Of a DNA stretch of 64,000 nucleotides, positions 9,152 to 40,764 are shown piece after piece. A program made the translations under genes and the position numbers. Positions within the stretch are counted from its first letter, which is position 1. Each line of letters begins with the position of its first letter. The notes under the pieces were generated by a model. That model saw only the letters and a list, made by a program, of their open reading frames with translations. It did not search any database and was not told where the DNA came from. The DNA comes from Flavobacteriales bacterium (GTDB lineage Bacteria; Bacteroidota; Bacteroidia; Flavobacteriales_F; PHOS-HE28): contig JADJQW010000002.1 of NCBI GenBank assembly GCA_016712535.1, positions 520,254 through 584,253 of the forward strand, given 5' to 3'.

Positions 9152-9215
9152 AGCATTTCCGCGCCCGGAGCGCGCCGCTATTTTTGCGGCCCCTCAAGGG
9201 CCAATCCATTGCACC

Positions 9216-10795: not shown

Positions 10796-10874
10796 GCGAG
10801 CAAGGTAGATCGATGGCCTAGGCCGGAAAGCGTTCCTTTGCCCGGCGCCGGAAATGGCTGGCGCGCGATCATCC

Positions 10875-13283: not shown

Positions 13284-13284
13284 C

Positions 13285-14148: not shown

Positions 14149-14150
14149 GC

Positions 14151-15104: not shown

Positions 15105-15108
15105 GCCA

Positions 15109-16005: not shown

Positions 16006-16020
16006 GGACGCTAAACAACA

Positions 16021-16046
16021 ACGGGCGCCGAAGGATCGGCGCCCGT
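16021..16046 (-). terminator. Hairpin (9-bp stem ACGGGCGCC/GGCGCCCGT) followed on the minus strand by UGUUGUUUAG; candidate terminator for the 16067..18115 gene
   Basis: Inverted repeat read directly, 20 bp downstream (minus sense) of the stop at 16067. Confidence 0.45.
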
Positions 16047-16066
16047 TGACATTTCGTTGGATCTGA

Positions 16067-18115
16067 TCAGCGGATGAGCTCGAAGCGGGCCACGGTCATG
16101 GAGCCATCCGGCCGCGTGATGCGCAGGGCATAGCTGCCATTGACCAGCGAGGCAGGAAGGTCAATGGTGTTGACACCGCTCCTGAGCTGAGTGCTCCAAG
16201 CCAAGCGCCCCGAGGGGTCGATCGCCTCAGCGCGCGACGGCAGCTCGGCACCAATGATGAGCGTGCCATGGCTCGGGTTCGGGTGCAAAGTCAAGTTAGT
16301 TGCTGTTTCTGCCACGCCGAGTGTCAGGCAATAGGGGTCGCCCGGATCCACGAAATTCACTCGCACGCAGGCCGTATCCGAACCGCACTGAGGGTGGAAC
16401 ACGATGTAGCAGTAGTCCCCTTCGGAGCTCATGGTGGGGTCGAACGTGCCGCTGGCGGGTTGCTCCTCGAAGAACCAGGATCCATCAGGATCAGGCGTTC
16501 CCAATAGCGAATCGAGCAGGTTGAAGGCATCCTGTTGGGGGCACGCAAGGATGGAGTTGGATTCGCCGGCATTCGGGGCAGGAATCAGGTTCACCGAGAA
16601 GACCGCCGCATCGCTGCCACAGCCGTTGCTCACGGTGTAGGTATAGTCCCCGGGAAGGCTCACTTCCGGCCCATCGCTCCACACGCCTCCATCGGCGCCG
16701 TTCACGTAGTCGGAAAGATCCACGGAGCTGTTGACGCATATTCCAATGACAGCGTCGGTGCCAGCATCCGGCGCTGTGCCGGGGACCACATCGATCACCG
16801 CGCTGTCCTCCCCGCATGCGCTTTGAACAGTGTAGGTATAGGCGCCTACCGCGCTCACGATCGGACCATCGCTCCAGGTTCCGCCATCCTCGCCTGTCAC
16901 GTAGTCGTCGAGGTCAATCACTTCGCCGGGGCAGAGCGGAACCGTGGCATCAGCCCCCGCGCCCGCGTTCGCGAGCACGTCGATGCTGTATGTGTACACC
17001 TGGGTGCCGATCACCGGGCACGCATCATCAGTCGCGGTGATGGTGAAGAGGTAGTTGCCCGCCGGTGCGGAACCATCCAGGCAAACAGCGGCCGACGCAG
17101 GATTGCCCGGTGTCAGCTCGATGCTCCCGCCCGGGATGGCGAAGTTGCTTTCCAAGCTCACCGTCTGCCCGGCATCGGCATCCGTGATGGCTGCGGTGAA
17201 GCAACCGGCGCCGCACGCGATGATCGCGTACGGTTCCGTGGCGGAGATGGCGCCGGTGATATCCGTAGCCACGCCGCTGGCCGTATCGGGCACGATGTTA
17301 TCGCACACCTGCGCGATGAAGGGGAAGTCGCGCATGATGGTGCCCCGCCAAACGCCGTTCGCATCGCGCACCTCGATGGCGATCACGCATACGATGTAGC
17401 CCTGCCCCAGCGCCGTGAAGGTGATCTGGCCGGTGAGGCTATCGATCGCAAGACCGGTGTAAGGCTCGGGCCCCGTGAAAGGCGATTGGTAGCCCACGGA
17501 TTGGATGTCGAGGTTCAAGGGGTCAGCGTTGAGCAGGCGGCGCGCCTCGATCAGGCGGAAGCGCAGTTGCTGTCCTTGGGTGAAGATCACGCCGGGGTCG
17601 TAGCTCACCGGCTGATTCACGCAAACAAGCGGTGGCGTGTTGTCGCTGAAGCTCGGGTACTCGATGCAGGTGCCGCCTTCGTTGTTCACCAAGGCTTCGA
17701 TGTAGATGCCCTGCGACCCTTGCAGGTTCAGCGCAGGGAATCGGCAGCAGGTGCTCCAGTAGATGCGCCAGAAATCGCACGGACTGAGGAAGACGTTGGT
17801 GCGGTACGTGTACTCTTCAATGCCGATCAGGTTCCCGCCATCGCAAGTGGTCTGGTCGGCTTGTCCTTCGCAGATCGGTGAGACATTGGCCATGGAGATC
17901 AGCGGGATATCATCGAGCGTGAATGTCACTCCGCATGAGCTCACGAAGTTGATGGACTGTGAGATCATCGGCACCCCGGTGCATTCGCGCCAGAGCTTCA
18001 GGGTGACCTCGTGCTGGTTGCCGCTCACGCAGCGCACGGAAATGTTGCCGCCGGGCAGGTGCTCGGCCAGGGCAGGCAAGGCCCAAAGAAGAAGGGAGAG
18101 TGTCAGGATGCGCAT
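16067..18115 (-). CDS. Cell-surface adhesin-like protein with Ig-like tandem units and a T9SS type-A C-terminal sorting domain
   Basis: Signal peptide MRILTLSLLLWALPALA (Met 18115). Duplicated units DYVTGEDGGTWSDGPIVSAVGAYTYTVQSACGEDSAV / DYVNGADGGVWSDGPEVSLPGDYTYTVSNGCGSDAAV. C-terminus LTLHPNPSHGTLII...GSYALRITRPDGS is a T9SS CTD. Confidence 0.65.
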   Translation of the reverse strand: MRILTLSLLLWALPALAEHLPGGNISVRCVSGNQHEVTLKLWRECTGVPMISQSINFVSSCGVTFTLDDIPLISMANVSPICEGQADQTTCDGGNLIGIEEYTYRTNVFLSPCDFWRIYWSTCCRFPALNLQGSQGIYIEALVNNEGGTCIEYPSFSDNTPPLVCVNQPVSYDPGVIFTQGQQLRFRLIEARRLLNADPLNLDIQSVGYQSPFTGPEPYTGLAIDSLTGQITFTALGQGYIVCVIAIEVRDANGVWRGTIMRDFPFIAQVCDNIVPDTASGVATDITGAISATEPYAIIACGAGCFTAAITDADAGQTVSLESNFAIPGGSIELTPGNPASAAVCLDGSAPAGNYLFTITATDDACPVIGTQVYTYSIDVLANAGAGADATVPLCPGEVIDLDDYVTGEDGGTWSDGPIVSAVGAYTYTVQSACGEDSAVIDVVPGTAPDAGTDAVIGICVNSSVDLSDYVNGADGGVWSDGPEVSLPGDYTYTVSNGCGSDAAVFSVNLIPAPNAGESNSILACPQQDAFNLLDSLLGTPDPDGSWFFEEQPASGTFDPTMSSEGDYCYIVFHPQCGSDTACVRVNFVDPGDPYCLTLGVAETATNLTLHPNPSHGTLIIGAELPSRAEAIDPSGRLAWSTQLRSGVNTIDLPASLVNGSYALRITRPDGSMTVARFELIR

Positions 18116-18218
18116 ATGCCCAGGTTTTAAGGATCGACAATGTAGAAACGCTGGGCACACCACCAAGCCCAGGCCCATGCATGCGCGCTCGGCCCACAGG
18201 CTGCTCAAGGTGGACCGC

Positions 18219-19091
18219 CTATCGCGCCCGCTCCAGCGCCTTCAGGTCCTCCTCGATGAAGCCTTCCTTCTTGCCGAAGATGGCCGCATCGTCGCGCAGG
18301 TACATCAGCTCGCCGGTACCGGCATTGAACACGCGCTTGAAGCAGTGCTTGTTCTTGTGGTCGCCGATGGTGATCACCGCATCGCTCACGGTCTTGGTGC
18401 GGTCCTGGGCCTCAATGGCGGCGATCGCATCTCCGATCCGGAAGGGTGAGGTATAGACCGCCTTGATGGCCTCGGCGCCCGGCAGGCTCTTGTCCAAGTG
18501 CTCCTTGCTGAAGAGCAGTTCCGTCTCGCGCACCAGTCGGGTGCGGCTCGCATACAGGCGATCGGCGGTGGCCATGTCGATGACCTTGCCGCCCTCCACC
18601 TGCTTGAGGTAGTCCTGCAAGTGCTTCACGTAGATGGTGATCATCGCTGCGGCCTTACCATCGGCAATGGCCTTGGGATCGATGAGGATCGAGGCCAGCT
18701 CCTGCTCGGCTCCGATGCCGGTGAAGCAATTGTCGGTCTGTTGCAGGGCATCGCCTTTCTTCTGCTTCCATCCTTTCACCACCGCCATGAAGCTGCCTTC
18801 GAACTTCACGGGGTCCGTGCGCCGTGTCTTCATCAGGTAGGTCCTGTCGGCGCTGATGGGTTGCATGCCGAGATCGGCCACGGTGATGAAGTCCACTGAG
18901 GCATTGAACTTCCATTCCGCCTTCACCGCGTTCATCAACGCGCGGTTGTACGGAGAATCGCCAGCATCGAGCACCACCACCAGCGGAAGCGCCTTCGCGG
19001 CCTTCACGGCCGGAGCGGCGAAGGAGCCGTACTGCGCGAGTGCGATGAGCGGAGCGGCGGTGAGCGTGACGAGGAATGAGCGGAGGAGCAT
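18219..19091 (-). CDS. Hypothetical secreted/periplasmic protein
   Basis: Signal peptide MLLRSFLVTLTAAPLIALAQ from Met 19091. No recognised domain. GC3-rich codon usage. Confidence 0.5.
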   Translation of the reverse strand: MLLRSFLVTLTAAPLIALAQYGSFAAPAVKAAKALPLVVVLDAGDSPYNRALMNAVKAEWKFNASVDFITVADLGMQPISADRTYLMKTRRTDPVKFEGSFMAVVKGWKQKKGDALQQTDNCFTGIGAEQELASILIDPKAIADGKAAAMITIYVKHLQDYLKQVEGGKVIDMATADRLYASRTRLVRETELLFSKEHLDKSLPGAEAIKAVYTSPFRIGDAIAAIEAQDRTKTVSDAVITIGDHKNKHCFKRVFNAGTGELMYLRDDAAIFGKKEGFIEEDLKALERAR

Positions 19092-19151
19092 GTGTTCGGT
19101 TTTTTCTTCGCCGGGCGAAAGTAGTGCCATGCGGTACGGACCTTTGAGGCC

Positions 19152-19529
19152 ATGAGCGAGGAGGCCAACACATCGCTGTCGAAAGGCGAGCTGGATGGCC
19201 TGCGCCCCTGGCTCGATCGCGCTGAAGTGCTCACATCGACCGTGCAGCAGCTCCGCAAGGACCTCGCGCTCGCAGAGGCGGACTTGCCGGAGCCTGGAGC
19301 GGTGGAGGGGGCCTTTGAGGAATTGCGTGCCGGAGTGCTTGCGCGACTCATGGAATTGGAGCGGGGAAGCGGGAATGCGGTGCAAACGGCCATGTACCGC
19401 GTCGACATCCCCGAGCGCCACTTGCAGCGCGCATTGGAAAGCGGAGGGCTCCACGCATTGGCCGGTGAATGCGTGCTCCGCGCGCTCCAGAAGGTATTGA
19501 CCCGCCTGCGCTTCGCGGGCCGATTCTGA
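19152..19529 (+). CDS. Small hypothetical protein (125 aa)
   Basis: ATG-initiated, GC3-rich ORF in the gap between the 18219..19091 gene and sucA. No recognisable family. Confidence 0.35.
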   Translation: MSEEANTSLSKGELDGLRPWLDRAEVLTSTVQQLRKDLALAEADLPEPGAVEGAFEELRAGVLARLMELERGSGNAVQTAMYRVDIPERHLQRALESGGLHALAGECVLRALQKVLTRLRFAGRF

Positions 19530-19629
19530 GCCTTGGCAATCGGGCTCCATTTGTGGATTCGGTCGTTCACAACCACCGACCGTCACATCCTTCAACCCCC
19601 AGCCGCAGGAATACCTTTGCGCCGCCTCC

Positions 19630-22437
19630 ATGGACAAGCTTTCCTACCTGAGCAACGTCGATAGCGCCTGGCTCGACGATCTCTACCAGAATTACCTGAA
19701 GGACCCCGCCAGCGTCGAGACCGGCTGGGCGCGCTTCTTCGAAGGATTCGAGTTCGCCCGCGCCTTGGAGGGCGGCAGCATCGAAGGAGGGGCTCCAGCA
19801 GCCCCTGCTCCCGGCGGCAATGACCGCTTCGAGAAGGAGTTCCGAGTCATCGAGCTCATCAACGCCTATCGGCAGCGGGGACACCTCTTCACCAAGACCA
19901 ATCCGGTCCGCGACCGCCGCACGTATTCGCCCACGCTCGATATCGAGCACTTCGGGCTGTCTTCCGCCGATCTCGACACCGTGTTCAGCGCCGGCAATGA
20001 GGTGGGCATCGGCCCGGCCAGGCTCCGTGACATCATCGACCTGCTCAAGCAGACCTATTGCCAGAGCGTGGGCGCCGAGTTCAAGTTCATCCGCAACCCG
20101 GAGAAGGTGCGGTGGCTGCAGCAGCGCATGGAGGGCGTGCGGAACACGCCGGATTTCACCATCGAGCAGAAGAAGGAGATCCTCGAGAAGCTCAACGAGG
20201 CCGTCGTCTTCGAGCGATTCCTGGGCAAGAAGTTCATCGGCCAGAAGCGCTTCAGCATCGAGGGCGCAGAGGCCTTGATCCCTGCGCTCGACACCGTGAT
20301 CGAGCATGGCGCCGAGCTGGGCATCACCGAGTACGTGATCGGCATGGCGCACCGCGGCCGCCTCAACGTGCTGGCCAACACCCTGCGCAAGAGCTACGAC
20401 CAGATCTTCTCCGAGTTCGAGGGCAAGGATTATGATGATGAGCTGGTGGAGGGCGACGTGAAGTACCACATGGGCTACAGCAGCGTGCTGAAGACCAATA
20501 CCGGCAAGGAGGTGCGCCTGACCTTGGCGCCGAACCCCAGCCACCTGGAGACGGTGGGCCCCATCATGCAAGGCATCTCGCGCGCCATCATCGAGCACGA
20601 CGACGATTTCGCCAAGGGCATCACCGCGCCGATCATCATCCATGGCGATGCCGCGGTAGCCGGGCAGGGCGTGGTGTATGAAGTGGTGCAGATGGCGGGC
20701 CTCAAGGCCTACGAGGTGGGCGGCACCATCCACATCGTGGTGAACAACCAGGTGGGCTTCACCACCAACTACATCGATGCGCGCACCAGCACCTATTGCA
20801 CCGATGTGGCCAAGGTGACCCAATGCCCGGTGTTCCACGTGAACGGCGATGATGCCGAGGCCGTGGCCTACACCATGAAGCTGGCCATGGATTACCGCCA
20901 GAAGTACGGCACCGATATCTGGGTGGACATCCTCTGCTACCGCAAGCACGGCCACAACGAGGGCGATGAGCCCAAGTTCACCCAGCCGCTGCTCTACAAG
21001 AAGATCCAGGAGCACCCCGATCCGCGGAAGATCTACATCGATAAGCTCAAGAGCAGCGGCGTCAACGAAGCGGAAGAGCTCGCTGCCGAGATGGAGGCCT
21101 CCTTCACCGGCATGCTGAATGCGCGCCTCGACGAAGCGAAGCAGGTGCGCGTGGGCAAGATCACCAACTTCCTCGAGGAGCGCTGGAAGGGATTCAAGCG
21201 CGCCGATGCGAAGGATTTCTTGCGCTCGCCCGAGACAGGCGTGCCGATGGAGACGCTCCAGCTGATCGGCGACAAGCTCAGCGTGCTGCACCCCGAAGGC
21301 AAGAAGTTCTTCAGCAAGCTGGAGAAGATCCTCGGCGACCGCAAGAAGATGATGGAGGCCGGCGTGATCGATTGGAGCATGGGCGAGCTGCTCGCTTACG
21401 GATCGCTGCTCCTGGAAGGCCACCCGGTGCGCATGACCGGCCAGGATGTTGAGCGCGGAACCTTCAGCCACCGCCATGCCGTGGTGAAGGTGGAGGACAG
21501 CGAGGAGGAATTCATCCACCTCAAGCACATCCGCGAGGGCCAAGCGCTGCTCCAGATCTACAATTCACTGCTGAGCGAGTACGCCGTCCTCGGCTTCGAG
21601 TTCGGCTATGCGTTGGCCATGCCCGATACGCTCACCATTTGGGAGGCGCAGTTCGGCGATTTCGTGAACGGCGCGCAGATCGTGCTGGATCAGTACCTCT
21701 GCTGCGCGGAAGAGAAATGGGGCACGCAGAACGGCGTGGTGCTCCTGTTGCCCCACGGTTATGAGGGCCAGGGCGCCGAGCACAGCAGTGCACGCATGGA
21801 GCGCTTCCTTCAGGGCTGCGCGGATGAGAACATGGTGGTCGTGAACTGCACCACGCCCGCCAACTTCTTCCATGTCCTGCGCCGCCAGTTGAAGTGGGAG
21901 TTCCGCAAGCCATTGGTGGTCTTCAGCCCCAAGAGCCTGTTGCGCCACCCGAAGTGCGTGAGCAAGCTGGAGGTCCTGACGAAGGGCTCGTTCCAGGAGC
22001 TGATCGACGATGACTCGGCCGATGCCGAGCAGGTGCGCACGGTGATCTTCACGCAGGGCAAGATCCACTACGAGCTCTCCGCCCACCGCGAAGAGAAGGG
22101 CATCGCCGGTACCGCGCTCGTGCGCATCGAGCAGCTGCATCCGCTGCCTGCCGACCAGATGCGCGCAGTGATCAAGAAGTACGCGAAGGCGGAGCGATGC
22201 CTCTGGGTGCAAGAGGAGCCGAAGAACATGGGCGCTTGGAGCCACATCGCCATGCACTTCCCCGAAATCAAGTGGGAGGTGATCGCCAGGCCCGCCAGCG
22301 GCGCCCCAGCCACCGGCAGCAGCAAGCGCAGCGCGAAGCAACAGGCCGAGATCATCGAGAAGGCGTTCGCACAGGTCGCACCCAAGCCTGCGGCAACCAA
22401 GCCGAAGAAGAGATCGCCAGCAAAGGCCAAAGCCTGA
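19630..22437 (+). CDS. sucA: 2-oxoglutarate dehydrogenase E1 component
   Basis: 935 aa; MDKLSYLSNVDSAWLDDLYQNYLKDP... and the ThDP-binding core (...RKHGHNEGDEP...). Collinear with SucA. Confidence 0.9.
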   Translation: MDKLSYLSNVDSAWLDDLYQNYLKDPASVETGWARFFEGFEFARALEGGSIEGGAPAAPAPGGNDRFEKEFRVIELINAYRQRGHLFTKTNPVRDRRTYSPTLDIEHFGLSSADLDTVFSAGNEVGIGPARLRDIIDLLKQTYCQSVGAEFKFIRNPEKVRWLQQRMEGVRNTPDFTIEQKKEILEKLNEAVVFERFLGKKFIGQKRFSIEGAEALIPALDTVIEHGAELGITEYVIGMAHRGRLNVLANTLRKSYDQIFSEFEGKDYDDELVEGDVKYHMGYSSVLKTNTGKEVRLTLAPNPSHLETVGPIMQGISRAIIEHDDDFAKGITAPIIIHGDAAVAGQGVVYEVVQMAGLKAYEVGGTIHIVVNNQVGFTTNYIDARTSTYCTDVAKVTQCPVFHVNGDDAEAVAYTMKLAMDYRQKYGTDIWVDILCYRKHGHNEGDEPKFTQPLLYKKIQEHPDPRKIYIDKLKSSGVNEAEELAAEMEASFTGMLNARLDEAKQVRVGKITNFLEERWKGFKRADAKDFLRSPETGVPMETLQLIGDKLSVLHPEGKKFFSKLEKILGDRKKMMEAGVIDWSMGELLAYGSLLLEGHPVRMTGQDVERGTFSHRHAVVKVEDSEEEFIHLKHIREGQALLQIYNSLLSEYAVLGFEFGYALAMPDTLTIWEAQFGDFVNGAQIVLDQYLCCAEEKWGTQNGVVLLLPHGYEGQGAEHSSARMERFLQGCADENMVVVNCTTPANFFHVLRRQLKWEFRKPLVVFSPKSLLRHPKCVSKLEVLTKGSFQELIDDDSADAEQVRTVIFTQGKIHYELSAHREEKGIAGTALVRIEQLHPLPADQMRAVIKKYAKAERCLWVQEEPKNMGAWSHIAMHFPEIKWEVIARPASGAPATGSSKRSAKQQAEIIEKAFAQVAPKPAATKPKKRSPAKAKA

Positions 22438-22557
22438 AAAGCCGCAAGGCCCAAGCCTCAAGCCCCAAGCATCAAGTGGCCCGAAACCGATTCGCCCGAA
22501 CCAATTGATGCTTGATACTTGGGCCTTGCGGCTTGAAGCTTCAACAACTGAAACATC

Positions 22558-23793
22558 ATGGCACTAGTCGAGATCAAAGTCCCCAGCCCCGGAGAGAGCA
22601 TCAGCGAAGTGCGCATCGCGCGCTGGAACGTGAAGGATGGCGATGTGGTGAACAAGGACCAGGTGCTGGGCGAGATCGACAGCGACAAGGCCACTTTGGA
22701 AGTGATCGCTGAGGAGGCCGGGAAGGTGAAGCTCCTCGCTGCCGCGGATGCTGAAGTGAAGGTGGGCGATGTGGTGGTGACGATCGATACGAGCGTGAAG
22801 CCGGAGCCGAAGGCGTTGCCGGTGAAGGAGGTGAAGGAAGAGAAGGAGGCGAAGAAGGCCTTGCCAGCAGCGGTGCCCGCGGCTGCCGGATCCGCAGCGC
22901 ACGCCACACCGGTCGCGCGAGCGATGCTCGATGAGAAGGGCGTGAGCGCCGATAAAGTGAAAGGCAGCGGACCCAATGGCCGGATCACCAAGAGCGATGT
23001 AGCCGCTTACGTGGCCGGCGGCGTGAATGCCGATGCCATCGCGCTGAACGGATGGGGCGGATCGCGCAACCAGAACCGCCAGAAGATGACCACCCTGCGC
23101 AAGAAGGTGGCCGAGCGCTTGGTGGCCGTGAAGAACCAGACCGCCATGCTCACCACCTTCAACGAAGTGGACATGAGCGCCGTTATGGCCTTGCGTGACA
23201 AGTACAAGGACAAGTTCAAGGAAGCGCACGGCGTGAACCTGGGCTTCATGAGCTTCTTCACCAAAGCAGTCACCGAGGCACTGCGCCTGTTCCCGCAGGT
23301 GAATGGCCAGATCGATGGCGATGAGCTGGTGATGCACGACTATGCCGACATCGGCATCGCGGTGAGCTCACCGAAGGGATTGATGGTGCCCGTGCTGCGC
23401 AACGCGGAGAAGCTGAGCCTTGCTGGGATCGAGGCGGGCATCAAGGCGCTGGCGGTGAAGGCACGTGACGGCAAGCTCAGCATCGATGAGATGACCGGCG
23501 GCACCTTCACCATCACCAACGGCGGCGTCTTCGGCAGCATGCTCAGCACGCCCATCCTCAACCCGCCGCAGAGCGCCATCCTGGGCATGCACAACATCGT
23601 GGAGCGCCCCGTGGCCGTGAACGGCCAGGTCGTCATCCGCCCCATCATGTACCTGGCGCTGAGCTATGATCACCGCATCATCGACGGCAAGGAGAGCGTG
23701 AGCTTCCTGATGGCCGTGAAGCAGATGATCGAGGACCCCGATAAGATGGTCTTCGGGAACCGCGAGCCGGGGGAGGTCCTGCTGGGGCTGTAG
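22558..23793 (+). CDS. sucB: 2-oxoglutarate dehydrogenase E2 (dihydrolipoyllysine-residue succinyltransferase)
   Basis: N-terminal lipoyl domain ([11 protein letters not shown]), an Ala/Pro linker and the catalytic domain ending [14 protein letters not shown]. Confidence 0.9.
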
Positions 23794-23991
23794 TCAACCA
23801 GGACTCCCGCCGGTGGGCGGAGACACCACGGTCCATGATCACGGGACCCAGGTCCGCTTTCCGTTCGGGGGCGCTTTCGAGATGCGCCTTTGAGCCGGCA
23901 GGTCGTGTCCTTGGCGCCTGAAGGACTGGCGAACCGCCTCCGACCGCCCCGTCTATCTTCGCCGCCCTTCGCACAGACCGTTCCCTACCGC

Positions 23992-25873
23992 ATGGACCGC
24001 AACTCGATCATCGGGATCATCCTCATCGTCGCCATCCTCTTCGGCTACACCCTCTGGACCATGCCGACCGAGGAGGAGCGGGCGGCCTTCCAGCGCCGAG
24101 CCGACAGCCTGGCGATCGTGGAGGCCGATCAGCGCGAGCAGGAGGCCGCCAAGAAGCTGATCGCCGATTCCATGCGGCAGGGCGCCCAAACGGTTGTGTT
24201 GGATACCACGGTCTCGCCTGCGGATCTCGCCTTGGCCGATAGTCTCCTGGAAGCGAACCTGTCCAAGCGCTTCGGGCCATTCGCTCCTGCTGCGGAAGGC
24301 AGGGCCGAGGAGGTCTCCATCGGCAATGAGCGCTTGCAGGTGAGCTTCAGCACCCAAGGCGCGCGGCCAACCCTGATGCTGCTGAAGGAGTACCGCACTT
24401 ACCGCCAGGCTCCGCTGCTGCTCGCCGATCCCGATTCCGGCGCCTTCTATTTCCGGTTCCTCACCGGCGGTACGGACCTCAGCACTTCCGACCTCTATTT
24501 CTCCGCGGAGAAGATCGGTGAGGATGCCGTTCGGTTCACCGCTCCCACCGCCGATCCGGCCAAGAAGCTGCAGATCACCTATCGTCTCGACAGCACCAGC
24601 TATTTCCTGCACACGAGCCTTGATTTCGTTGGCATGCAGGGGCGAGGTCGACGCGCGGAGCCTGCTCTTCAACTGGGAGCTGACGGGCCTGAGCAACGAG
24701 AAGCACCAGCCCAGCGAGATGCAGAAATGCGGCGTGTACTACAAGTACTTCAACGACGACCGCAACTACCTCAGTGAATCAAGCGCCGAGCAGAAGAAGC
24801 TCGAGGGCCGGACCAACTGGGTGGCCTTCAAGCAGGGCTTCTTCACCGTGGGCATGATCAGCGAAGGCGGCTTCAGCAGCAACGGCAGCCAGATCGCCAT
24901 CAATCCGCTCCTCGCCGAGACGCATACCAAGCACTACAGCGCCAAGCTGCTCTTTGAGAAGGAGCGCGATGCGCAGCCATCGGTGGACATGCGCCTCTAC
25001 CTCGGCCCGAACCATTTCGGCACCCTTCGCCGCACGGAGATCGCGGACTTCCAGAAGATCATCGATCTCGGCTGGGGCATCTTCGGATGGATGAACCAGT
25101 GGCTGGTGATCCCGATCTTCAACTGGCTCGATGGCTGGGGCTGGAACTATGGCATCATCATCCTGGTGCTCACCGTCGTGATCAAGCTCCTGCTGATGCC
25201 GCTCACCTACAAGAACCTGGTGGCGAGCGCCAAGATGCGCGTGCTCAAGCCCGAGATGGACGCCATCAACGAGAAGCACAAGGAGGGCGACGCGCTCAAG
25301 AAGCAGCAGGCCACCATGGAGCTGTACCGCAAGGCCGGCGTGAACCCCGCCAGCGGCTGCGTGCCCATGCTCATCCAGCTGCCCGTGCTCTACGCCATGT
25401 TCCGCTTCTTCCCCGCCAGCATCGAATTGCGGCAGGAGAAGTTCCTCTGGGCCGACGACCTCAGCAGCTACGATAGCATCTTCGAGTGGACCCAGCACAT
25501 CCCCTTGATCAGCGACAGCTACGGCAATCACATCAGCCTCTTCACCCTGCTCATGGCGGCCAGCACCATCGTGTACTCGGTGATCAACCAGAAGCAGATG
25601 CCCAGCCAGCAGAACATGCCGGGCATGAAGATGATGATCTACCTCTTCCCGATCATGATGCTGTTCTTCCTGAACAACTTCAGCGCGGGCCTCAGCTACT
25701 ACTACCTGCTGGCCAACCTGATCAGCATAGCGCAGATGACCGTGCTGAAGAGCTGGTTCGTGGATGAGAACAAGATCCGCGCGCAGCTGGAGCTGAACAT
25801 GCGCACCCCGAAGAAGAAGAGCAAGTGGCAGCAGCGGCTCGATGAGATGCAGAAGCAGCAGCGGCGCAAATGA
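23992..25873 (+). CDS. yidC: Membrane protein insertase YidC (long Bacteroidetes type), interrupted by a +1 frameshift in a GGGG run at ~24639..24642
   Basis: Frame 1 (23992..) encodes the N-terminal TM helix and periplasmic domain up to ...SLDFVGMQG. Frame 2 continues EVDARSLLFNWELTG... through the conserved YidC core (PLTYKNLVASAKMRVLKPEMDAINEKHK...GCVPMLIQLPVLYAMFRFF) to the stop at 25873. Removing one G from GGGG restores one ORF. Confidence 0.75.
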
Positions 25874-25957
25874 GCGGCATCGCTCCATCGGGCCTGCTTG
25901 CTCATCGTGCTGATGACTGAGCTGCGATAAAGGCACGCCATTCGATACGTGAGCACC

Positions 25958-26479
25958 ATGAAGCACCTGATCGCTATTCCCATCGCCGCATTGGCGCTGG
26001 CCTGCAGCACCAACCAGCCCGTTGCTACGGCAGAGCCGGCCGTCGACCAAGAAGCGGCTGCCGCTGCGCCACGGCTCGGCGGCGCTGGCAAGGCCGACAC
26101 CCTGTTCCTCAGTCTGGAGCGAACGCCCTGCTTCGGGCAGTGCAAGGCCTACCGGATCGACCTGTACCGCAGCGGATATGCCACCTACGACGGTCGGGGG
26201 AACGTGGAGAAAATGGGTCGGCACAGTGCGCGCATCGGCGTCGATTCGATGATCACCATGCTGAACCGGGCCGACGAATTGGGGTTCTTCGGCCTGCAAG
26301 CCAAGTACGATGCTGAGGTGACGGACCTGCCCAGCACCGTGCTGCGGATCATCGCCGATGGCCGGGACAAGAAGGTGCTTGGCCGGGTGGGACAGCCCCA
26401 GGCGTTCAAGGCCTTGGTGGCCGAGATCGAAAGCCTCCTCCTGCCGGTGGCCTGGGTGCCGGTTACGCCCGAACCTTAG
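25958..26479 (+). CDS. Hypothetical lipoprotein
   Basis: MKHLIAIPIAALALAC signal peptide with a lipobox-like Cys. No recognised domain. Confidence 0.5.
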   Translation: MKHLIAIPIAALALACSTNQPVATAEPAVDQEAAAAAPRLGGAGKADTLFLSLERTPCFGQCKAYRIDLYRSGYATYDGRGNVEKMGRHSARIGVDSMITMLNRADELGFFGLQAKYDAEVTDLPSTVLRIIADGRDKKVLGRVGQPQAFKALVAEIESLLLPVAWVPVTPEP

Positions 26480-26600
26480 CGCCTATCACCGGCCACGCCG
26501 TTGGTCCCTTAACGGTCCGTCACGCACGGGTCCTCCGGCTACATTTGGCGCCCCTCGGCAGGATGCACCAGCCGGGTGAAGCTGAACCAACCCCTCATTC

Positions 26601-28844
26601 ATGAAGAAGTTCCTTTCACTCCTCGTCGCCGCCCTGGTGGCGATCGCCGCCAACGCCCACGAGGGCATGTGGCTCCTCACCAAGCTCAAGCAGATCAACG
26701 AGGCCGAGATGCAGAAGCTCGGCTTCAAGCTCACTGCCGAGGACATCTACGACATCAACCGCAGCGGTGTGAAGGATGGCGTGGTGCGCCTGGGCCGCGG
26801 ATTCTGCAGCGGCGAGATGGTGAGCGCCGAAGGCCTATTCCTCACCAACCACCACTGCGGCTACGATGCCGTGCAGAGCCTCAGCAGCGTGGAGCACGAC
26901 TACCTCACCGACGGTTTCTGGGCCATGAGCCGCAAGGATGAGTTGCCCGCCGGCTTCAGCGTGAGCTTCCTGCAGCGCATCGACGACGTCACCGGCCAGG
27001 TGCTGGCTGAGCTCAATGACGCCATGACTGAGGAACAGCGTGCCGAGGCGATCCAGGCCGTTGCCACCAAGCTCAAGTCGGTCGTGGGCAAGGAGAACGG
27101 TCTGAGCGCCGATTTCAAGGTCATGTTCGAGGGCAACGAGTTCTACCTCTTCGTGTACAAGACTTACCGCGACGTGCGCCTGGTGGGCACCCCGCCCAGC
27201 GCCATCGGCAAGTTCGGCGGCGATACCGACAACTGGATGTGGCCCCGCCACACGGGCGATTTCAGCATGTTCCGCGTGTACACCGGTCCCGATGGAGAGC
27301 CCGCCGATTTCAATGAGGCCAACATCCCGTTCAAGCCCAAGTGGCACTTCCCCGTGAGCATCGCCGGGGTGAAGGAGGGCGACTTCGCCATGGTGATGGG
27401 CTACCCCGGCACCACCGACCGTTTCCTGAGCAGCCACGGCGTGAAGCTCGCCCTCGACATTGAGCAGCCCAGCCGCGTGAAGATCCGTGGTCAGAAGCTC
27501 GAGCTCATGAAGCAGGACATGGACGCCAGCGACGCCGTGCGCATCCAATACGCCAGCAAGTACGCTCAGGTGAGCAACTACTGGAAGTACTTCATCGGCC
27601 AGCAGCGCGGCCTCAAGCGCCTGCGCGTCCATGACAAGAAGAAGGCGCAAGAGGAATCGCTCATGGCCTGGGTGAGCGCCGATCCGAAGCGAAAGGCGAA
27701 GTACGGCGAGATCATCTCCCTGCTCGAGCGCGGGTACAGCGACCGCGCCAAATTCGAGAAGGCCAGCACCTACATGCAGGAAGCCGCCTTCGGCAGTGAG
27801 CTGATCACGTTGGGCTTCCGTCTGCAGGGCCTCAAGGCGCAATTGGAAACCGACCCCAAGGACGCCGCGAAAGTCGCCGCTGCCGTGGCGCAGGTTCAGG
27901 CGATGACCGCCGATCACTGGAAGGACTACAACGCCCCCACTGACGAGAAGATCACGGCAGCCATGTTCGACCTGATCCGGAACGATGTGGAGCAGGACCT
28001 CCAACCGCAGGTGATGGCCACCATCACCAAGAAGTTCAAGGGCAGCACCTCCGCGTGGTCAAAGGCGATCTTCGCCACGAGCATGCTCGCGGACAAGAAG
28101 CGCCTCGATGCCTTCTTGGCGAAGCCCTCCTTGAAGGCGCTCCAGAAGGACCTCGGTTTCCAAGCCAGCGAGAGCTGCCTGAACCACTGGCGCAATGTGC
28201 TCGGTCCTGCCGTGGGAGCAACGGAGGCCGACACCGAGAAGGGTTACCGCCTGATGGTGGCCGCCATGCGCGAGATGGAGCCGAACAAGAGCTGGTACCC
28301 CAACGCCAACAGCACCATGCGCCTCACCTACGGGCAGGTGGGCAGCTACGTGCCCATGGACGGCGCCTTCTACAAGCACATCACCACCGCCAAGGGCATC
28401 CTGGAGAAGGAGGACCCCACGAATGATGAGTTCATCGTGCCCGCCCGACAGAAGGAGCTGCTATTGAAGAAGGACTACGGCCGTTACGCCGATGAGAACG
28501 GCGAGCTGGTCACCTGCTTCATCAGCAACAACGACATCACCGGCGGCAACAGCGGCAGCCCCGTGATCAACGGCAACGCCGAGCTCATCGGCATCGCCTT
28601 CGATGGCAACTGGGAGGCCATGAGCGGCGACATCGCCTTCGAGCCCGAGCTGCAGCGCACCATCAGCGTCGATATCCGATACGTGCTCTGGTGCATCGAC
28701 AAGCTCGCCGGCGCCGGCCACCTGGTGAACGAGATGACCTTGGTGGAGCGCAAGCCCGTGGTGGAAGAGGTGAAGGCCGAACTGCCTCCGCCGGTTGAAC
28801 CGGTGAAGCCAACTCCCGCGAAGAAGCCGGCGGGGAAGAAGTAG
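26601..28844 (+). CDS. S46-family dipeptidyl-peptidase (DPP7/DPP11-like serine peptidase)
   Basis: Signal peptide followed by the family-defining HEGMWL motif. Catalytic-Ser region GGNSGSPVIN near the C-terminus. ~720-aa mature length is typical of S46. Confidence 0.8.
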   Translation: MKKFLSLLVAALVAIAANAHEGMWLLTKLKQINEAEMQKLGFKLTAEDIYDINRSGVKDGVVRLGRGFCSGEMVSAEGLFLTNHHCGYDAVQSLSSVEHDYLTDGFWAMSRKDELPAGFSVSFLQRIDDVTGQVLAELNDAMTEEQRAEAIQAVATKLKSVVGKENGLSADFKVMFEGNEFYLFVYKTYRDVRLVGTPPSAIGKFGGDTDNWMWPRHTGDFSMFRVYTGPDGEPADFNEANIPFKPKWHFPVSIAGVKEGDFAMVMGYPGTTDRFLSSHGVKLALDIEQPSRVKIRGQKLELMKQDMDASDAVRIQYASKYAQVSNYWKYFIGQQRGLKRLRVHDKKKAQEESLMAWVSADPKRKAKYGEIISLLERGYSDRAKFEKASTYMQEAAFGSELITLGFRLQGLKAQLETDPKDAAKVAAAVAQVQAMTADHWKDYNAPTDEKITAAMFDLIRNDVEQDLQPQVMATITKKFKGSTSAWSKAIFATSMLADKKRLDAFLAKPSLKALQKDLGFQASESCLNHWRNVLGPAVGATEADTEKGYRLMVAAMREMEPNKSWYPNANSTMRLTYGQVGSYVPMDGAFYKHITTAKGILEKEDPTNDEFIVPARQKELLLKKDYGRYADENGELVTCFISNNDITGGNSGSPVINGNAELIGIAFDGNWEAMSGDIAFEPELQRTISVDIRYVLWCIDKLAGAGHLVNEMTLVERKPVVEEVKAELPPPVEPVKPTPAKKPAGKK

Positions 28845-28887: not shown

Positions 28888-28910
28888 TTGCGTTCAGCTA
28901 CTTTCACCCC

Positions 28911-30206
28911 ATGCCCGCCCCCAAGCTCCTCGATGCGCTTCCGCAGCTCGTGCGCGAAGGGCTCATCACGGCGGAGCAGGCCGAGCGCATCCGCGCGCGC
29001 TTCGCCAACGATTCTGCACAGGGCACCAGCCGCATGCTGCTCGTGTTCGCCATCCTCGGCAGCGTGCTGGTTGGTCTGGGCATCATGCTCATCGTGGCGC
29101 ACAACTGGGACGATTTCACCCGGCCGGTGCGCACGGTGCTCGCATTCGCGCCGGTGCTGATCGGCCAGGCGCTGGTCTGGCATGCGCTGCGCGCCAAGCC
29201 CGATGTCCGCGCGTGGCGCGAGGGCAGCGCCATCTTCCTCGCCTGCGCGCTCTTCGCCTGCGTGGCGCTCATCAGTCAGATCTACCACATCGAGGGCTCG
29301 CTGCATGGCTACCTGCTCACCTGCGCGCTGCTGATCCTGCCGCTGATCTACCTGCCCGGTTCCTTGATCGTATCGCTCGGCTACATCGCCACGGTCACCT
29401 GGCACGCGGCGGCGTACCACTGGGATGGCCCGGGCCGCATGGCTTTGCCCTGGTCCTCTTTGCTGCTGCTCGCCGCTGCCGTGCCCATGTACTTGCGCGC
29501 GGCTCGGTTGAATGGCGAGCGCATCGGTTTCTGGTGGCTCAGCCTGTTCGCGGCGTTGAGCGTGGGCCTGATCTCGCAATGGTTCTACCGCGATTGGAGC
29601 ATCGTGCATGTATTCGGCGTGCTGGGCATGGCCACGGCCTTCACGCTGGTGCCCTGGCTGCACACGGGCCGCGAGCTGCGCTCCTGGCCGTGGGCCCTCG
29701 TTGGCGGCGCGGCGGTGCTCATCACCTTCTTCGTGCTCAGCTATCGCGACGCATGGGGTTTCCGCTCGGCGGACCGTGATCGGTCCATGGTGGAAACGAG
29801 CGAGGCGATCGTGATCGCCGCAATGACGCTCATCGGCATCGTTGCTTACGTGCTGTCACTCAGGCGGCGCAGGCCATTCGAGCAGTGGCCTTACCCGGAG
29901 GCCATGGGCTTCTTCGCGCTCTGTTATGTCGCTGGCCTGCTGCAACCTTGGCTGGCGCCCTTGCTCGTGAATGCCGCCCTGCTCGCCATGGGCGTGGTCA
30001 CGGTGCGCGCGGGCATCGCGCACGATTCGCTGAAGCGCATGAACCTCGGACTGGCCATCATCGGCCTCACCGTGCTGCTGCGCTTCCTGGATACGGACAT
30101 GAGCTTCGCGCTGCGGGGATTGGCCTTCATCGCCATCGGTGGCGGCTTCTTGTACATGAACCTGCGCATGGTGCGCCAGCGCGACAAGCAGAAGCCTGAC
30201 GCATGA
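28911..30206 (+). CDS. DUF2157-type integral membrane protein (possibly fused with a DUF4401-like region)
   Basis: N-terminal soluble segment (LITAEQAERIRARF) then about 10 predicted TM helices. Sits directly upstream of, and overlaps by 4 bp with, a GDYXXLXY protein. This is the usual partner arrangement. Confidence 0.6.
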   Translation: MPAPKLLDALPQLVREGLITAEQAERIRARFANDSAQGTSRMLLVFAILGSVLVGLGIMLIVAHNWDDFTRPVRTVLAFAPVLIGQALVWHALRAKPDVRAWREGSAIFLACALFACVALISQIYHIEGSLHGYLLTCALLILPLIYLPGSLIVSLGYIATVTWHAAAYHWDGPGRMALPWSSLLLLAAAVPMYLRAARLNGERIGFWWLSLFAALSVGLISQWFYRDWSIVHVFGVLGMATAFTLVPWLHTGRELRSWPWALVGGAAVLITFFVLSYRDAWGFRSADRDRSMVETSEAIVIAAMTLIGIVAYVLSLRRRRPFEQWPYPEAMGFFALCYVAGLLQPWLAPLLVNAALLAMGVVTVRAGIAHDSLKRMNLGLAIIGLTVLLRFLDTDMSFALRGLAFIAIGGGFLYMNLRMVRQRDKQKPDA

Positions 30207-30889
30207 ACCGCAAGCCGCTCCTCTTCCTCGGCATCGCCCTCGCGCAGCTCGCCGTGCCTGCATGGATGATCACGGGTCGCGAGCGCGTGCTCACCCAAGG
30301 TGAGGTGTTCAAATTCAAAACGGCGCCCATCGACCCACGCGATCCGTTCCGGGGCGAGTACGTGCGGCTGGAGTTCGAGGCGGAGAGCGGTTCCTGGCAA
30401 GCGCCGGACACCACGGTCACCAATCCGCAGGGCTATGCTGCCTTCGATGAGCAAGAGGCGTATGGCGTGCTCAGTGTGGACAGCAGCGGATTCGCGCTCA
30501 TCAGCGCGCTGAGCGAGCATCCTCCGGCTGGGCAGACGTTCATCCGCGTGCTCTACAACTCGGCGAATGAGCAGCGCATTGACCGCGTGTTCCTGCCCTT
30601 CGACCGCTTCTACTTGGAGGAAGGCGACGGAGCGAAGACCGAGGAACTCTTGCAGCCTCAATGGAACGATGGCGAGGTGACGCAGCCGCTGCCGGCTTAC
30701 GCACTGGTGCGCGTGCTCAACGGCGAAGCCGTCATCGAGGACCTGATTGTGGATGAGCGTTCCATCCATCAATGGCTCGCAGACCCCTCCTTGGAACCGA
30801 GTGCCGCTGGGGTCAGCGCGCTTGCGGATTCTGTTGCCCTCCCGGCGGATTCCGCATCAGCGCTTGCTTCTCCCGCTCCAGCACCGTGA
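30203..30889 (+). CDS. GDYXXLXY-domain protein
   Basis: N-terminal TM anchor and the motif RGEYVRLEF (GDYxxLxY-like). Second member of the DUF2157 partner pair. Confidence 0.6.
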   Translation: MNRKPLLFLGIALAQLAVPAWMITGRERVLTQGEVFKFKTAPIDPRDPFRGEYVRLEFEAESGSWQAPDTTVTNPQGYAAFDEQEAYGVLSVDSSGFALISALSEHPPAGQTFIRVLYNSANEQRIDRVFLPFDRFYLEEGDGAKTEELLQPQWNDGEVTQPLPAYALVRVLNGEAVIEDLIVDERSIHQWLADPSLEPSAAGVSALADSVALPADSASALASPAPAP

Positions 30890-31640
30890 TTGATGCGCCC
30901 ACACTGGCCATCACCGGCGCGAGCATGAGTCCGATCAACGGGATCTTCATCAGCAGGCTGAAGCAGGCGCCGTTGGCCAGCACCGCGCCGAGCTGGCTGT
31001 TCACCGCGCGCGTGGTCTCGCCGATGCGCATGCGCCGCCGCTCGAACACGTAATCGAACATGCTGAAGCCATAGAAGTACGACGACACCACGAAGAGCAG
31101 GATGAAGCTGATGGGCGTGATCAAGGGCAGGAAGAACGAAGCGACCCAGATGGCCACGGTGAACGCCAGCTCGAGCACGCCGTTGCGCATGGCCACCAGC
31201 GCGCCGCGCAGGGCATCCTTCATCAACTGCCGCCAACTGAACGGGAACTGCCGGCCCGTGAGCTTCTCTTCTGCCAGCTCGCTCGCATAGGCCAGCAGCG
31301 GCGAGAGCAGCACCAGCACGATGTACTTGTTGGCCACGAAGAGCAGGTAGCCGATGGCCAGGCGGAGGATCCAGCGTACGATCACCTCGCGCGCGCCGTT
31401 CATCCAGGCTTTGAAAGCCTCCCACCAATCACCGGTGCTGGTCTGCGCCACAGGCAGCTCCAGCCACACGGCCAGTTGCGCGCTCGCTGCCTCCACCATG
31501 CCTTCCATGGCATGGAAGAACCCATAGAAGAGCGCCACCCAGAGCACGATCGGCACCAGGAACATCCAGCCCATGCCGTTGCGCAGGGTGAAGCGGAAGG
31601 CGCTGATGAAGCCGTTGAGGCCAAGGCCGAGGTCGCGCAT
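30813..31640 (-). CDS. EI24/CysZ-like multi-pass membrane protein
   Basis: About 275 aa with 4-6 hydrophobic helices. Resembles the EI24/CysZ family. Start at Met 31640. Its 3' end overlaps the 3' end of the GDYXXLXY gene by 77 bp. Confidence 0.5.
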   Translation of the reverse strand: MRDLGLGLNGFISAFRFTLRNGMGWMFLVPIVLWVALFYGFFHAMEGMVEAASAQLAVWLELPVAQTSTGDWWEAFKAWMNGAREVIVRWILRLAIGYLLFVANKYIVLVLLSPLLAYASELAEEKLTGRQFPFSWRQLMKDALRGALVAMRNGVLELAFTVAIWVASFFLPLITPISFILLFVVSSYFYGFSMFDYVFERRRMRIGETTRAVNSQLGAVLANGACFSLLMKIPLIGLMLAPVMASVGASITVLEREKQALMRNPPGGQQNPQAR

Positions 31641-31653
31641 GGGGCGAAGTAAT

Positions 31654-31773
31654 GGGTTGAAGAGGTTGAGCGGTTGAGAGTTGCGCCTGCGCGCAGGCTG
31701 GCGCCGGTTGAAGGTTGAACACCCCCCAACCTTCATCAACCCTCAACCTCTTCAACCATCAACCTCACAACCT
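31654..31773. repeat. Composite inverted-repeat element built from GGTTGAR heptads (left half) and YTCAACC heptads (right half) around a central palindrome GCCTGCGCGCAGGC
   Basis: 16-bp perfect arms GGTTGAAGAGGTTGAG (31655..31670) and CTCAACCTCTTCAACC (31742..31757). Inner imperfect arms GGTTGAAGGTTG / CAACCTTCATCAACC. At least 5 GGTTGA and at least 5 TCAACC copies. Located in the divergent intergenic region between the EI24-like and DUF5606 genes. Confidence 0.6.
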
Positions 31774-31784
31774 ACTTTCGCCCC

Positions 31785-32333
31785 ATGGATTTGAGCAAGA
31801 TCATCACCGTAGCGGGCAAGCCCGGATTGCACCGTGTCGTGGCGCAAGGCCGCCAAGCCATCATCACCGAATCGCTGGCCGATGGCAAGCGCGCGCCGGT
31901 GCCCTTGAGCGTGAAGGTGAGCAGCCTCGATGAGATCAGCATGTTCACCACCGGCGACGATGTGCTGCTGAAGGACGTGCTCGCGAAGCTGCACGAAGTG
32001 AACGGTGGAGGCGCCGCCGCTGATCCGAAGAGCGACGACAACACGCTCTGGGAAGCGCTCCTCAAGGCCCTGCCCACTGCCGACCGTTCGCGCATCTATG
32101 CCAGCGACGTGCGCAAGCTCTTCACCTGGTACGGCCAGTTATTGAAGGCCGGTGAGTTCGAGAAGAAGGAGGAGCCTGTGAAAGAGGCCGAGTCCAAAGA
32201 GGCTGCACCCGAGAAGAAGACCGTGGAGAAGGCCGTGAAGAAGAAGGCCGATGCCGCCGCGAAGGTGAAGCCGGCCAGCAGCGGCGCCCCCAAGGCAGCG
32301 GCCGTTCGCCGGGGTGGCCAGCGCGGCAGCTAG
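31785..32333 (+). CDS. DUF5606-family protein with Lys/Ala-rich basic tail
   Basis: MDLSKIITVAGKPGLHRVVAQGRQAIITESL matches the Bacteroidetes DUF5606 N-terminus. The C-terminal third is low-complexity KEAE/KKK. Confidence 0.55.
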   Translation: MDLSKIITVAGKPGLHRVVAQGRQAIITESLADGKRAPVPLSVKVSSLDEISMFTTGDDVLLKDVLAKLHEVNGGGAAADPKSDDNTLWEALLKALPTADRSRIYASDVRKLFTWYGQLLKAGEFEKKEEPVKEAESKEAAPEKKTVEKAVKKKADAAAKVKPASSGAPKAAAVRRGGQRGS

Positions 32334-32437
32334 GACGCAGCGAACCAAGCCCGGCCCGGAAGGGTTTCAAGGCAACCCATGAGGCGCGTCAGGAAGCGGG
32401 CTCCGCGCCCGGCTATCTTGCTCGCCCAACGCCACGC

Positions 32438-34429
32438 ATGAAACGCATCCGTACCCTCTCCGCTCGCACTTTCGCAATCGCTGTAATCGTAGGCCTCGTG
32501 TCCGTGCTGGTGGCTTGGAACCAGGACGGGCTTCCGGAAGCCAAGGCGTACCACTCGCAGGCCGAGATCGACGCTTTCCGAGGCGGCGGACAAGGGCTCT
32601 CCAGCGGCGCCAACAACTTCTTCCGCGCCAGCGGCGATTGCTACGGCTGCCACGGCCCGGACAACATCGGCCCGGTGTTCGCCAACCGCGACGCCAACGG
32701 GCACGATGTGAACCCCATCGATTCCTGGCGCAGCAGCATGATGGGCAACAGTGCCCGTGATCCCTTCTGGCGCGCCAAGGTGAGCCATGAGGTGAGCGTG
32801 AATCCGGGCCATCAGACGGCATTGGAGGACAAATGCACCAGCTGCCATGCACCCATGGGCCGCTACGACAAGCACCTCATGGGAGCGGGACCCTTCAGCA
32901 TCGCTGAGCTCGTGCAGGATCCCATCGCCCTCGATGGCGTGAGCTGCCTGGCCTGCCATATGCAGAAGCCGGATAGCTTAGGCCTGCTCTTCAGCGGCAA
33001 CCTGAAGTTCGAGACCAGCGGCATCCTCTATGGACCCTACGGAGGACCGGAGGAAGAGCCCATCTTCGGATCGCCCATGGCCGGCTTCGTGGGCTACGAG
33101 CCGCTTTGGGGGCCTCACCTAAGTGATGCAGGCACCTGCGCCGGCTGCCATACGCTCATCACTGAGACCGCCGACCTCGATGGCAATCTCACGGGCGATG
33201 AATTCGTGGAGCAGGCCACCTACCACGAGTGGCTCAACTCGTCCTACAACACCGATGCGGATCCCGAGAACGGCCTCAGCTGCCAGGCCTGCCACATGCC
33301 GCGCATCAGCGACGCCGTCGTGATCTCCGCCCTCTATGATTTCCTCACCCCGCGCACGCCTTTCGGTAAGCACCACCTTGTCGGCGCCAACGTGTTCATG
33401 CTGAACCTGCTCAAGCACAATAACACCGCGCTCGAGCTCACGGCCAACCAGGTGCATTTCGACAGCACCATCGCACGCACCGAACGCATGCTTCAGCAGC
33501 AGACCCTCCTGATCGAGACCTCGGTCATCGACCGCACCGCTGACCTCGCGTCCATCGATGTGAAGCTCACCAACCTCGCCGGCCACAAGTTCCCGAGCGG
33601 CTACCCCGCGCGCCGCGCCTTCATCGAGCTGCATGTGCAGGACGACGCGGGCAACACCCTCTTCCGCAGCGGCAATTGGGACGGCACCTATGAGGTCGTG
33701 GGTCACGATGCCGATTGGGAGCCTCACCACGATGTGATCACCAGCGAGGATCAGGCCCAGATTTATGAGATGGTCATGGGCGATGTGAATGGCGATAAGA
33801 CGACCGTCCTCGAGCGCGCGAAGGAGCCATTGAAGGACAACCGCCTCGCTCCGCTCGGATTCACCACCTCGCACATCAGCTACGACACCACGCTGATCGC
33901 CGGTGTCCCGCCCGAAGACCTTGACTTCAACCGCTTCACCAATGGCACCGAGGGCAGCGGCACCGACATCACGCATTACCAGATCGCCATGGGTGGCTAC
34001 TCCGGCGCGATCACCATCACCGCTCGCGTGTGGTACCAGAGCGCGCCGCCGCGCTGGATGGAGGAGATGTTCGAGTTCAACACGCCCGCCATCGACACCT
34101 TCCGGGACATGTACGAGGCCGAGGACGGCAGCCCGACGCTGGTGAAGGAGGAGGTGATCGTGGATACGAGCCTCGAGATCGACAACCTCGCCGAAGCAGG
34201 CATCCGCATCTTCCCCAATCCAGTGCGCGATGGACTGCTCCGCATCGAGGGCATCAGCGAGAAGGTGCGCAGCATCGAGGTGCTCGATATCAAGGGAGCG
34301 CGTCTGGCCCTGTTGCGCCGCAACCTCGAGCAAAGCTTCACCGTGCGGCTGCCCGACGCGCCCGGCACCTACCTGGTGGTGATCGAAGTGGCCGGCAAGC
34401 GCTTCGTGGAGCGCGTGGTGAGGCCCTAG
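32438..34429 (+). CDS. Pentaheme c-type cytochrome with a T9SS type-A C-terminal sorting domain
   Basis: Signal peptide. Five CxxCH motifs (CYGCH ~aa68, CTSCH ~133, CLACH ~170, CAGCH ~234, CQACH ~282), then a ~280-aa haem-free domain. C-terminus IRIFPNPVRDGLLRIEG...GTYLVVIEVAGKRFVERVV is a T9SS CTD. Confidence 0.75.
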   Translation: MKRIRTLSARTFAIAVIVGLVSVLVAWNQDGLPEAKAYHSQAEIDAFRGGGQGLSSGANNFFRASGDCYGCHGPDNIGPVFANRDANGHDVNPIDSWRSSMMGNSARDPFWRAKVSHEVSVNPGHQTALEDKCTSCHAPMGRYDKHLMGAGPFSIAELVQDPIALDGVSCLACHMQKPDSLGLLFSGNLKFETSGILYGPYGGPEEEPIFGSPMAGFVGYEPLWGPHLSDAGTCAGCHTLITETADLDGNLTGDEFVEQATYHEWLNSSYNTDADPENGLSCQACHMPRISDAVVISALYDFLTPRTPFGKHHLVGANVFMLNLLKHNNTALELTANQVHFDSTIARTERMLQQQTLLIETSVIDRTADLASIDVKLTNLAGHKFPSGYPARRAFIELHVQDDAGNTLFRSGNWDGTYEVVGHDADWEPHHDVITSEDQAQIYEMVMGDVNGDKTTVLERAKEPLKDNRLAPLGFTTSHISYDTTLIAGVPPEDLDFNRFTNGTEGSGTDITHYQIAMGGYSGAITITARVWYQSAPPRWMEEMFEFNTPAIDTFRDMYEAEDGSPTLVKEEVIVDTSLEIDNLAEAGIRIFPNPVRDGLLRIEGISEKVRSIEVLDIKGARLALLRRNLEQSFTVRLPDAPGTYLVVIEVAGKRFVERVVRP

Positions 34430-34447
34430 CGCTTCTACCTTGCCGCC

Positions 34448-36277: not shown

Positions 36278-36358
36278 GCGGTTCTTGAGTTTGGCGCGAA
36301 AGATACCCGGGGTACTAACCGGGCCCGATCTTCCTGCGCACCATGCTTGGCATCGCAC

Positions 36359-38545: not shown

Positions 38546-38587
38546 GAGATTCGGGTTGCGGTGGGCGAAGATGCCGAAAGCGCTTGA

Positions 38588-39649: not shown

Positions 39650-39676
39650 GCGTGGCGAAGATCGATAGTGCGACGA

Positions 39677-40750: not shown

Positions 40751-40764
40751 GGCGGGGTCCGGAT

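Follow-up and report, generated by a model that had tools for sequence, protein, structure and literature searches.

YidC of the Gram-negative type, represented by the Escherichia coli protein (PDB 3WVF) and by the NCBIfam family NF002356, is built from TM1, the periplasmic domain P1, and the 60KD_IMP core. It is essential for the viability of E. coli, where TM1 is a signal sequence and P1 is not essential for function (PMC4252904). In the 64-kb stretch of Flavobacteriales DNA analyzed here, which we refer to as the window, we found a yidC gene whose repaired product has the same three parts but whose open reading frame is interrupted at codon 217. The interruption resembles the residual homopolymer indels of long-read and metagenome assemblies, including polished ones: there, too, a change of one base splits a conserved gene into two adjacent open reading frames in different frames, and an independently made assembly of that sequence is free of it. 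It differs from them in that the run involved is short (3 to 4 G) and is the sole event found, while the G7 and G9 tracts of the window are correct.

Reading frames and product of yidC

The gene lies on the forward strand and starts at ATG 23992. Its upstream frame can be read to Gly217 (GGG, 24640-24642), ending in DFVGMQG; this part (codons 1 to 217, 23992-24642, frame position mod 3 = 1) encodes TM1, an N-terminal signal anchor (MDRNSIIGIILIVAILFGYTLW, a YidC N terminus typical of Bacteroidota), as well as the first half of P1. By direct reading, positions 24634-24649 are ATGCAGGGGCGAGGTC, in which four G stand in a row at 24639-24642, and in upstream-frame codons 24631-24649 read GGC ATG CAG GGG CGA GGT C. 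Past Gly217, the upstream frame as the sequence stands runs through 44 out-of-frame codons (RGRRAEPALQ...LPQ) and then meets a premature TGA at 24775-24777 (together 24643-24777, forward strand), so that yidC as given has no uninterrupted reading frame. Open from 24386 onward, the +1 frame runs as EVDARSLLFNWELTG... and ends with the stop at 25871-25873. From 24644 to 25873 on the forward strand, it supplies codons 218 to 626 and the stop, encoding the second half of P1 and the five helices of the conserved 60KD_IMP core.

A preliminary description of the locus had held that the upstream frame extends to ...DFVGMQG and that the YidC core continues in the +1 frame to the C terminus. The translations bear this out, as does a tblastn comparison of the repaired protein with the window, in which residues 1 to 217 match in frame 1, ending at 24642, and the remainder matches in frame 2; a GC3 frame plot changes phase at about 24571-24601 without a gap. 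Deleting one G from GGGG (24639-24642) gave a protein of 626 amino acids, just as the single insertase of ~626 amino acids had been foreseen, and this protein matches the NF002356 YidC equivalog profile end to end, with 611.8 bits against a cutoff of 460 (residues 1 to 625, profile positions 1 to 616 of 627). DNA alignments with three orthologous loci and one near-identical contig place the sole extra base in the same G run at which the junction had been set. In the sequence as given, yidC is genuinely broken at these coordinates.

Pfam matches in the repaired protein are YidC_periplas (PF14849, residues 108 to 372) and 60KD_IMP (PF02096, residues 386 to 586), and the break, at codon 217 of 626, is within P1. 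The core matches the solved structures 3WO6, 3WVF, and 4UTQ. In TM2 (VVIKLLLMPLT, window ~25180-25200), the window protein has a Lys where the solved YidC2 chain 3WO6 has the Arg of IRLALLPLT. We take this Arg to be the conserved groove Arg, equivalent to R366 of E. coli; with that equivalence assumed, the repaired protein combines a positively charged groove residue with P1 and 60KD_IMP. An R366K mutant of E. coli YidC has been reported to be functional (PMC4252904).

Upstream of yidC are sucA and sucB, and downstream are a DUF6438 protein gene and an S46 peptidase gene. sucB (2-oxoglutarate dehydrogenase E2; 22558-23793, forward strand) is intact, and its protein is identical in JGI contig Ga0245063_00111. 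The DUF6438 gene (25958-26479, forward strand) is also intact and is identical in JGI metagenome 3300038320 and in the Logan contigs of SRR3586902 and SRR11674035. A tblastn search with the repaired protein found no second yidC within the 64-kb window. The locus is an ordinary Gram-negative-type yidC, present in single copy, of a high-GC Flavobacteriales bacterium of activated sludge or wastewater.

Orthologues and independent contigs at the junction

The best protein matches to the repaired YidC are Flavobacteriales MAG proteins. The preliminary description had proposed that orthologues be compared for length around the junction. All seven members read from the 90% cluster, the YidC of Ga0245063_00111 among them, are 626 amino acids long and carry VG[LM]QGEVD at the junction, and an alignment of 120 homologues is collinear with the repaired protein across it. 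Conserved G, V-D, and F-x-W residues flank the junction on both sides, with G present in 110, V in 107, D in 120, and F in all of the 121 sequences. At the DNA level, the closest species-level genome (L001; JADIYA010000001, an activated-sludge MAG) is 90% identical over 2.56 kb with one gap, in the G run. Two further loci (L002 and L003) agree with it in being one base shorter there, and so does a near-identical JGI contig (L053); the junction codons in these sequences are CAG GGC GAG, CAA GGC GAG, or AAG GGC GAG.

The JGI contig, Ga0245063_00111 of metagenome 3300038320, was reached by exact look-up of the SucB protein of the window. Over window positions 17558-27206 (9,648 bp) the two are 99.97% identical, with 2 substitutions and 1 indel, which is the extra G. 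The contig has GGG at the junction, and its yidC is called intact at 626 amino acids. Thus, the discordant base falls in the G run and is absent from an independent assembly. The complete comparison spans 36.3 kb in three contigs of the JGI assembly, of which the other two cover window positions 28893-42001 and 41982-55560. It contains 41 substitutions and exactly one indel, the extra G in yidC. Since 34 of the substitutions are synonymous and 7 are nonsynonymous, we regard them as real strain differences filtered by purifying selection, not as noise. Among the differences, only the yidC frameshift should have been stopped by purifying selection, and it is the odd one out.

These comparisons bear on whether the extra G could be a real, very recent slipped-strand insertion that made yidC a pseudogene. 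Viability would then call for a second YidC/Oxa1 paralogue elsewhere, or the reads would stem from a transient nonviable or minority lineage. A null allele would fit with the 41 SNPs by which the window consensus differs from the JGI contigs and with the correct resolution of long G tracts elsewhere in the assembly, and one indel per 41 substitutions would not be abnormal as a natural ratio. However, the same local haplotype exists intact in Ga0245063_00111, and the downstream part of yidC shows no decay past the break, with one substitution in 1.2 kb relative to that contig and complete identity to Logan contigs over 25187-26710. A second yidC is missing from the window, the gene is essential in E. 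coli (PMC4252904), and the excess of synonymous over nonsynonymous changes (34 versus 7) marks strong purifying selection. We therefore consider a real null or leaky allele unlikely.

Other observations concern the relation between the window and the JGI contigs, which are different consensus sequences. Ga0245063_00111 positions 1-18439 (L075) are only 93 to 96% identical to window positions 1-10524, as opposed to 99.97% at 17558-27206, and have extra genes: a 372-amino-acid open reading frame between pyrH and frr, and HTH, DUF7948, and 475-amino-acid open reading frames between frr and the radical-SAM gene. Such a mismatch suggests that one of the two assemblies contains a recombinant mosaic or is a chimera of coexisting strains. 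The substitutions cluster at the ends of the JGI contigs, with 10 of 15 within 109 bp (28916-29024) in one contig (L054) and 21 of 24 within 1.2 kb (54196-55408) in the other (L055), and contigs 00671 and 00643 share an overlap of 20 nt (window positions 41982-42001). Such clustering and overlap are typical of strain bubbles that broke the short-read assembly and that the assembly of the window spans. Within yidC, an A/C difference at 25631 changes Met to Leu in GMK[M/L]MIY. The Leu occurs in the JGI contig only; Met is found in the window, in all more distant relatives, and in a Logan contig (L068), and the window therefore has the ancestral state at this position. Logan contigs of SRR3586902 (window 25187-26705, with the A at 25631) and SRR11674035 (window 25699-26710) are 100% identical to the window, and both start 3' of the junction.

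We also searched with the frameshifted sequence itself. The 261-amino-acid product had no exact match in the assembly collection, which counts in favor of an error in the window, and exact-product look-ups of the MMPL protein, the radical-SAM protein, the 682-amino-acid protein, and the S46 peptidase likewise returned no match. A 40-nt pattern (GGG or GGGN) had no match in metagenomes. The 11 matches of a 21/22-nt allele pattern in metagenomes were all in unrelated GC-rich genes with no yidC homology, which makes that pattern uninformative. A protein search with the frameshifted product listed relatives at ≤55% identity only; a 94%-identical protein (P0001) was not among the matches listed, so that this search is no proof of absence.

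Two matches in the same search, P0129 and P0133, extended over the out-of-frame tail. Both are other frameshifted yidC calls. We rejected a recurrent or programmed frameshift site because these calls break at different positions, in loci where several neighboring genes are fragmented too. Two public assemblies of related Flavobacteriales are examples, in which pyrG, yidC, the DUF6438 gene, and the S46 peptidase gene are fragmented or shortened to varying extents. At one locus (L070; ERZ25039600 contig_27000), each of pyrG, yidC, and the S46 peptidase gene is broken into several pieces; at another (L071; GCA_963851815.1, CAWKQA010000008.1), yidC is in two pieces and the neighboring calls are shorter than in relatives. 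The yidC breaks in both are at positions other than that of the window, and both look like unpolished long-read assemblies with many indels. As such cases show, assembly errors have repeatedly left frameshifted yidC genes in databases, and they have done so at varying positions, not at a single conserved one. Another database entry, P0134 (ENA, 240 amino acids), is a partial YidC that ends in ...DVYKRQ.... We take DVYKRQ to be the translation of the Nextera mosaic-end adaptor, GATGTGTATAAGAGACAG, which suggests that the contig ends in contaminating adaptor sequence.

Recoding, an internal start, and phase variation as alternative explanations

The preliminary description had named a programmed or slippage-prone site as its second choice. 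As in the programmed +1 frameshift of prfB (RF2), a +1 shift would be needed at the window site, and a rare and perhaps slow codon (CGA) follows the codon on which a slip could occur. Unlike the prfB type, whose sites are conserved across species, the window site is unconserved in orthologues and has neither an in-frame stop at the shift site nor a stimulatory element. If the extra G were real, full-length YidC could be made by +1 ribosomal frameshifting: with the rare CGA in the A site, the tRNA-Gly paired to GGG (24640-24642) would shift to GGC, giving M-Q-G-E-V-D, and quadruplet decoding would lead to the same protein. Slipping by +1 at GGG-C would restore the orthologous QGEVD exactly, and CGA is indeed rare, making up 4.1% of Arg codons (34 of the 13,179 codons counted in the window). 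However, CGA stands in the A site at the shift solely because of the extra G, and the extra base is absent from Ga0245063_00111, from the three orthologous loci, and from the 120 homologues. A search for a stimulatory RNA structure in the 98 nt downstream gave a fold no better than those of shuffled sequences (z = +0.54). A tRNA scan found no tRNA genes within the window. Frameshifting at +1 that is not programmed is normally inefficient. We consider this recoding extremely improbable. The second choice of the preliminary description is thus not supported, given a run of 4 nt, an extra base found in no relative, and no downstream structure.

A real extra G could also be tolerated if the gene were split and translation of the TM2-TM6 core began at an internal start (for instance, ATG 24719). 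The break falls within P1, at residue 217 of 626, and in E. coli neither P1 nor TM1, the signal sequence, is needed for activity (PMC4252904), which would favor a core able to act alone. However, a product that begins inside P1 would carry ~140 hydrophilic residues ahead of TM2 with no translocation signal, the internal start is hypothetical, and the arrangement occurs in no relative, either in the 90% cluster or among the 120 homologues. The chance that the core is made in this way seems to us exceedingly small. Taken as one proposition, that a living strain truly has the four-G allele and makes functional YidC from it through +1 recoding at CAG-GGG-CGA or through a separate TM2-TM6 core, the idea is very unlikely.

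We also rejected a phase-variable contingency locus. At poly-G/poly-C contingency loci, as in the window, a change in G-run length switches the frame. Such tracts are typically at least 7 nt long and lie in dispensable surface or restriction genes, whereas the tract in the window is 4 nt long and lies in yidC, a housekeeping gene. For phase variation, as for transcriptional slippage, 4 nt is much too short a run.

Homopolymer accuracy and the origin of the extra G

Apart from the G run in yidC, we found no other indels in the 36.3 kb compared with the JGI contigs, and the remaining homopolymer runs in this comparison agree between the assemblies (150 of length 4, 21 of length 5, 3 of length 6, and 1 of length 7). 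A G9 tract at 14809-14817 lies in frame in a polyprenyl synthetase gene (14151-15104), where it encodes ...GKQRGGDLRAGKKT..., and a G7 tract at 4322-4328 lies in frame within a class I/II aminotransferase gene; read at full length, both genes give strong Pfam matches. Another G7 tract (39692-39698), in the end portion of a CCP_MauG peroxidase gene, is the same in the JGI contig. The G9 tract could be a hot spot for mutation, and it offers a useful internal check on how accurately homopolymers are resolved. No other broken genes were found in the window, either by the GC3 plot, in which every other transition is at a normal gene boundary, or by Pfam scans, in which 18 further open reading frames gave normal full-length-looking matches or none. 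Further errors of the same kind were not seen in the window. Since the assembly is clean elsewhere, the extra G, if it is an error, is an isolated one and not a sign of systematic homopolymer trouble.

The GC3 plot also has a periodic signal, with segments roughly every 240 nt over 61950-63300, in a giant open reading frame on the reverse strand (55971-63995, 2,674 amino acids). The periodicity suggests tandem repeats of ~80 amino acids. With a C-terminal CHU_C type IX secretion sorting domain, an SprB repeat, and a PKD-like domain, this frame probably encodes a T9SS cell-surface adhesin.

The window haplotype is also found, as a Logan contig, in SRR11674035, which is the Illumina run of a sample from the Fredericia WWTP (PMC11809585) and has SRR11673978 as its Nanopore partner. 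This run belongs to the Danish activated-sludge survey, as do several of the closest public genomes (L001, L005, L006, L017, and L029). MAGs of that survey are CANU Nanopore assemblies that were polished with Racon, medaka, and one final Illumina Racon round (PMC8012365), and the most frequent error in assemblies of this sort is a leftover indel that alters the length of a homopolymer and frameshifts a gene (PMC8812927; PMC9262707). It is plausible that the window itself comes from such a Nanopore MAG.

We conclude, with a probability of about 85%, that the extra G is an isolated consensus, polishing, or assembly error. The real gene would read CAG GGC GAG (Q-G-E) at the junction and would encode the 626-amino-acid insertase; a G3 run would have been lengthened by one base in the consensus, and no biological mechanism would be needed. 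Two points stand against this reading. The assembly is not generally homopolymer prone, and a systematic error would strike the longer G7 and G9 tracts first. In addition, the window and JGI consensus sequences differ (41 SNPs, and 93 to 96% identity over 1-10524), so that a true strain-specific mutation is formally possible. In contrast to L070 and L071, which bear the marks of systematic error in their fragmented or shortened neighboring genes, the error in the window would be isolated. A homopolymer-length error was what the preliminary description had thought likeliest. The evidence favors that view: Ga0245063_00111 has GGG and an intact gene with 2 SNPs in 9.6 kb, the cluster members are uniformly 626 amino acids long, and the homologues are collinear. 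What we observe directly is that yidC is broken, at which exact position, and that a near-identical independent contig has an intact allele; from this we infer that the sequenced organism does not carry the extra base in its DNA.

Separate expression of the TM2-TM6 core would show that a Bacteroidota YidC can lose TM1 and P1. A real extra G would mean that a gene essential for membrane biogenesis had tolerated a frameshift, which is rare. If the extra G is an artifact, as we favor, it matters for annotation only: the locus should be annotated as one yidC of 626 amino acids, and an essential insertase should not be counted as missing from the genome.
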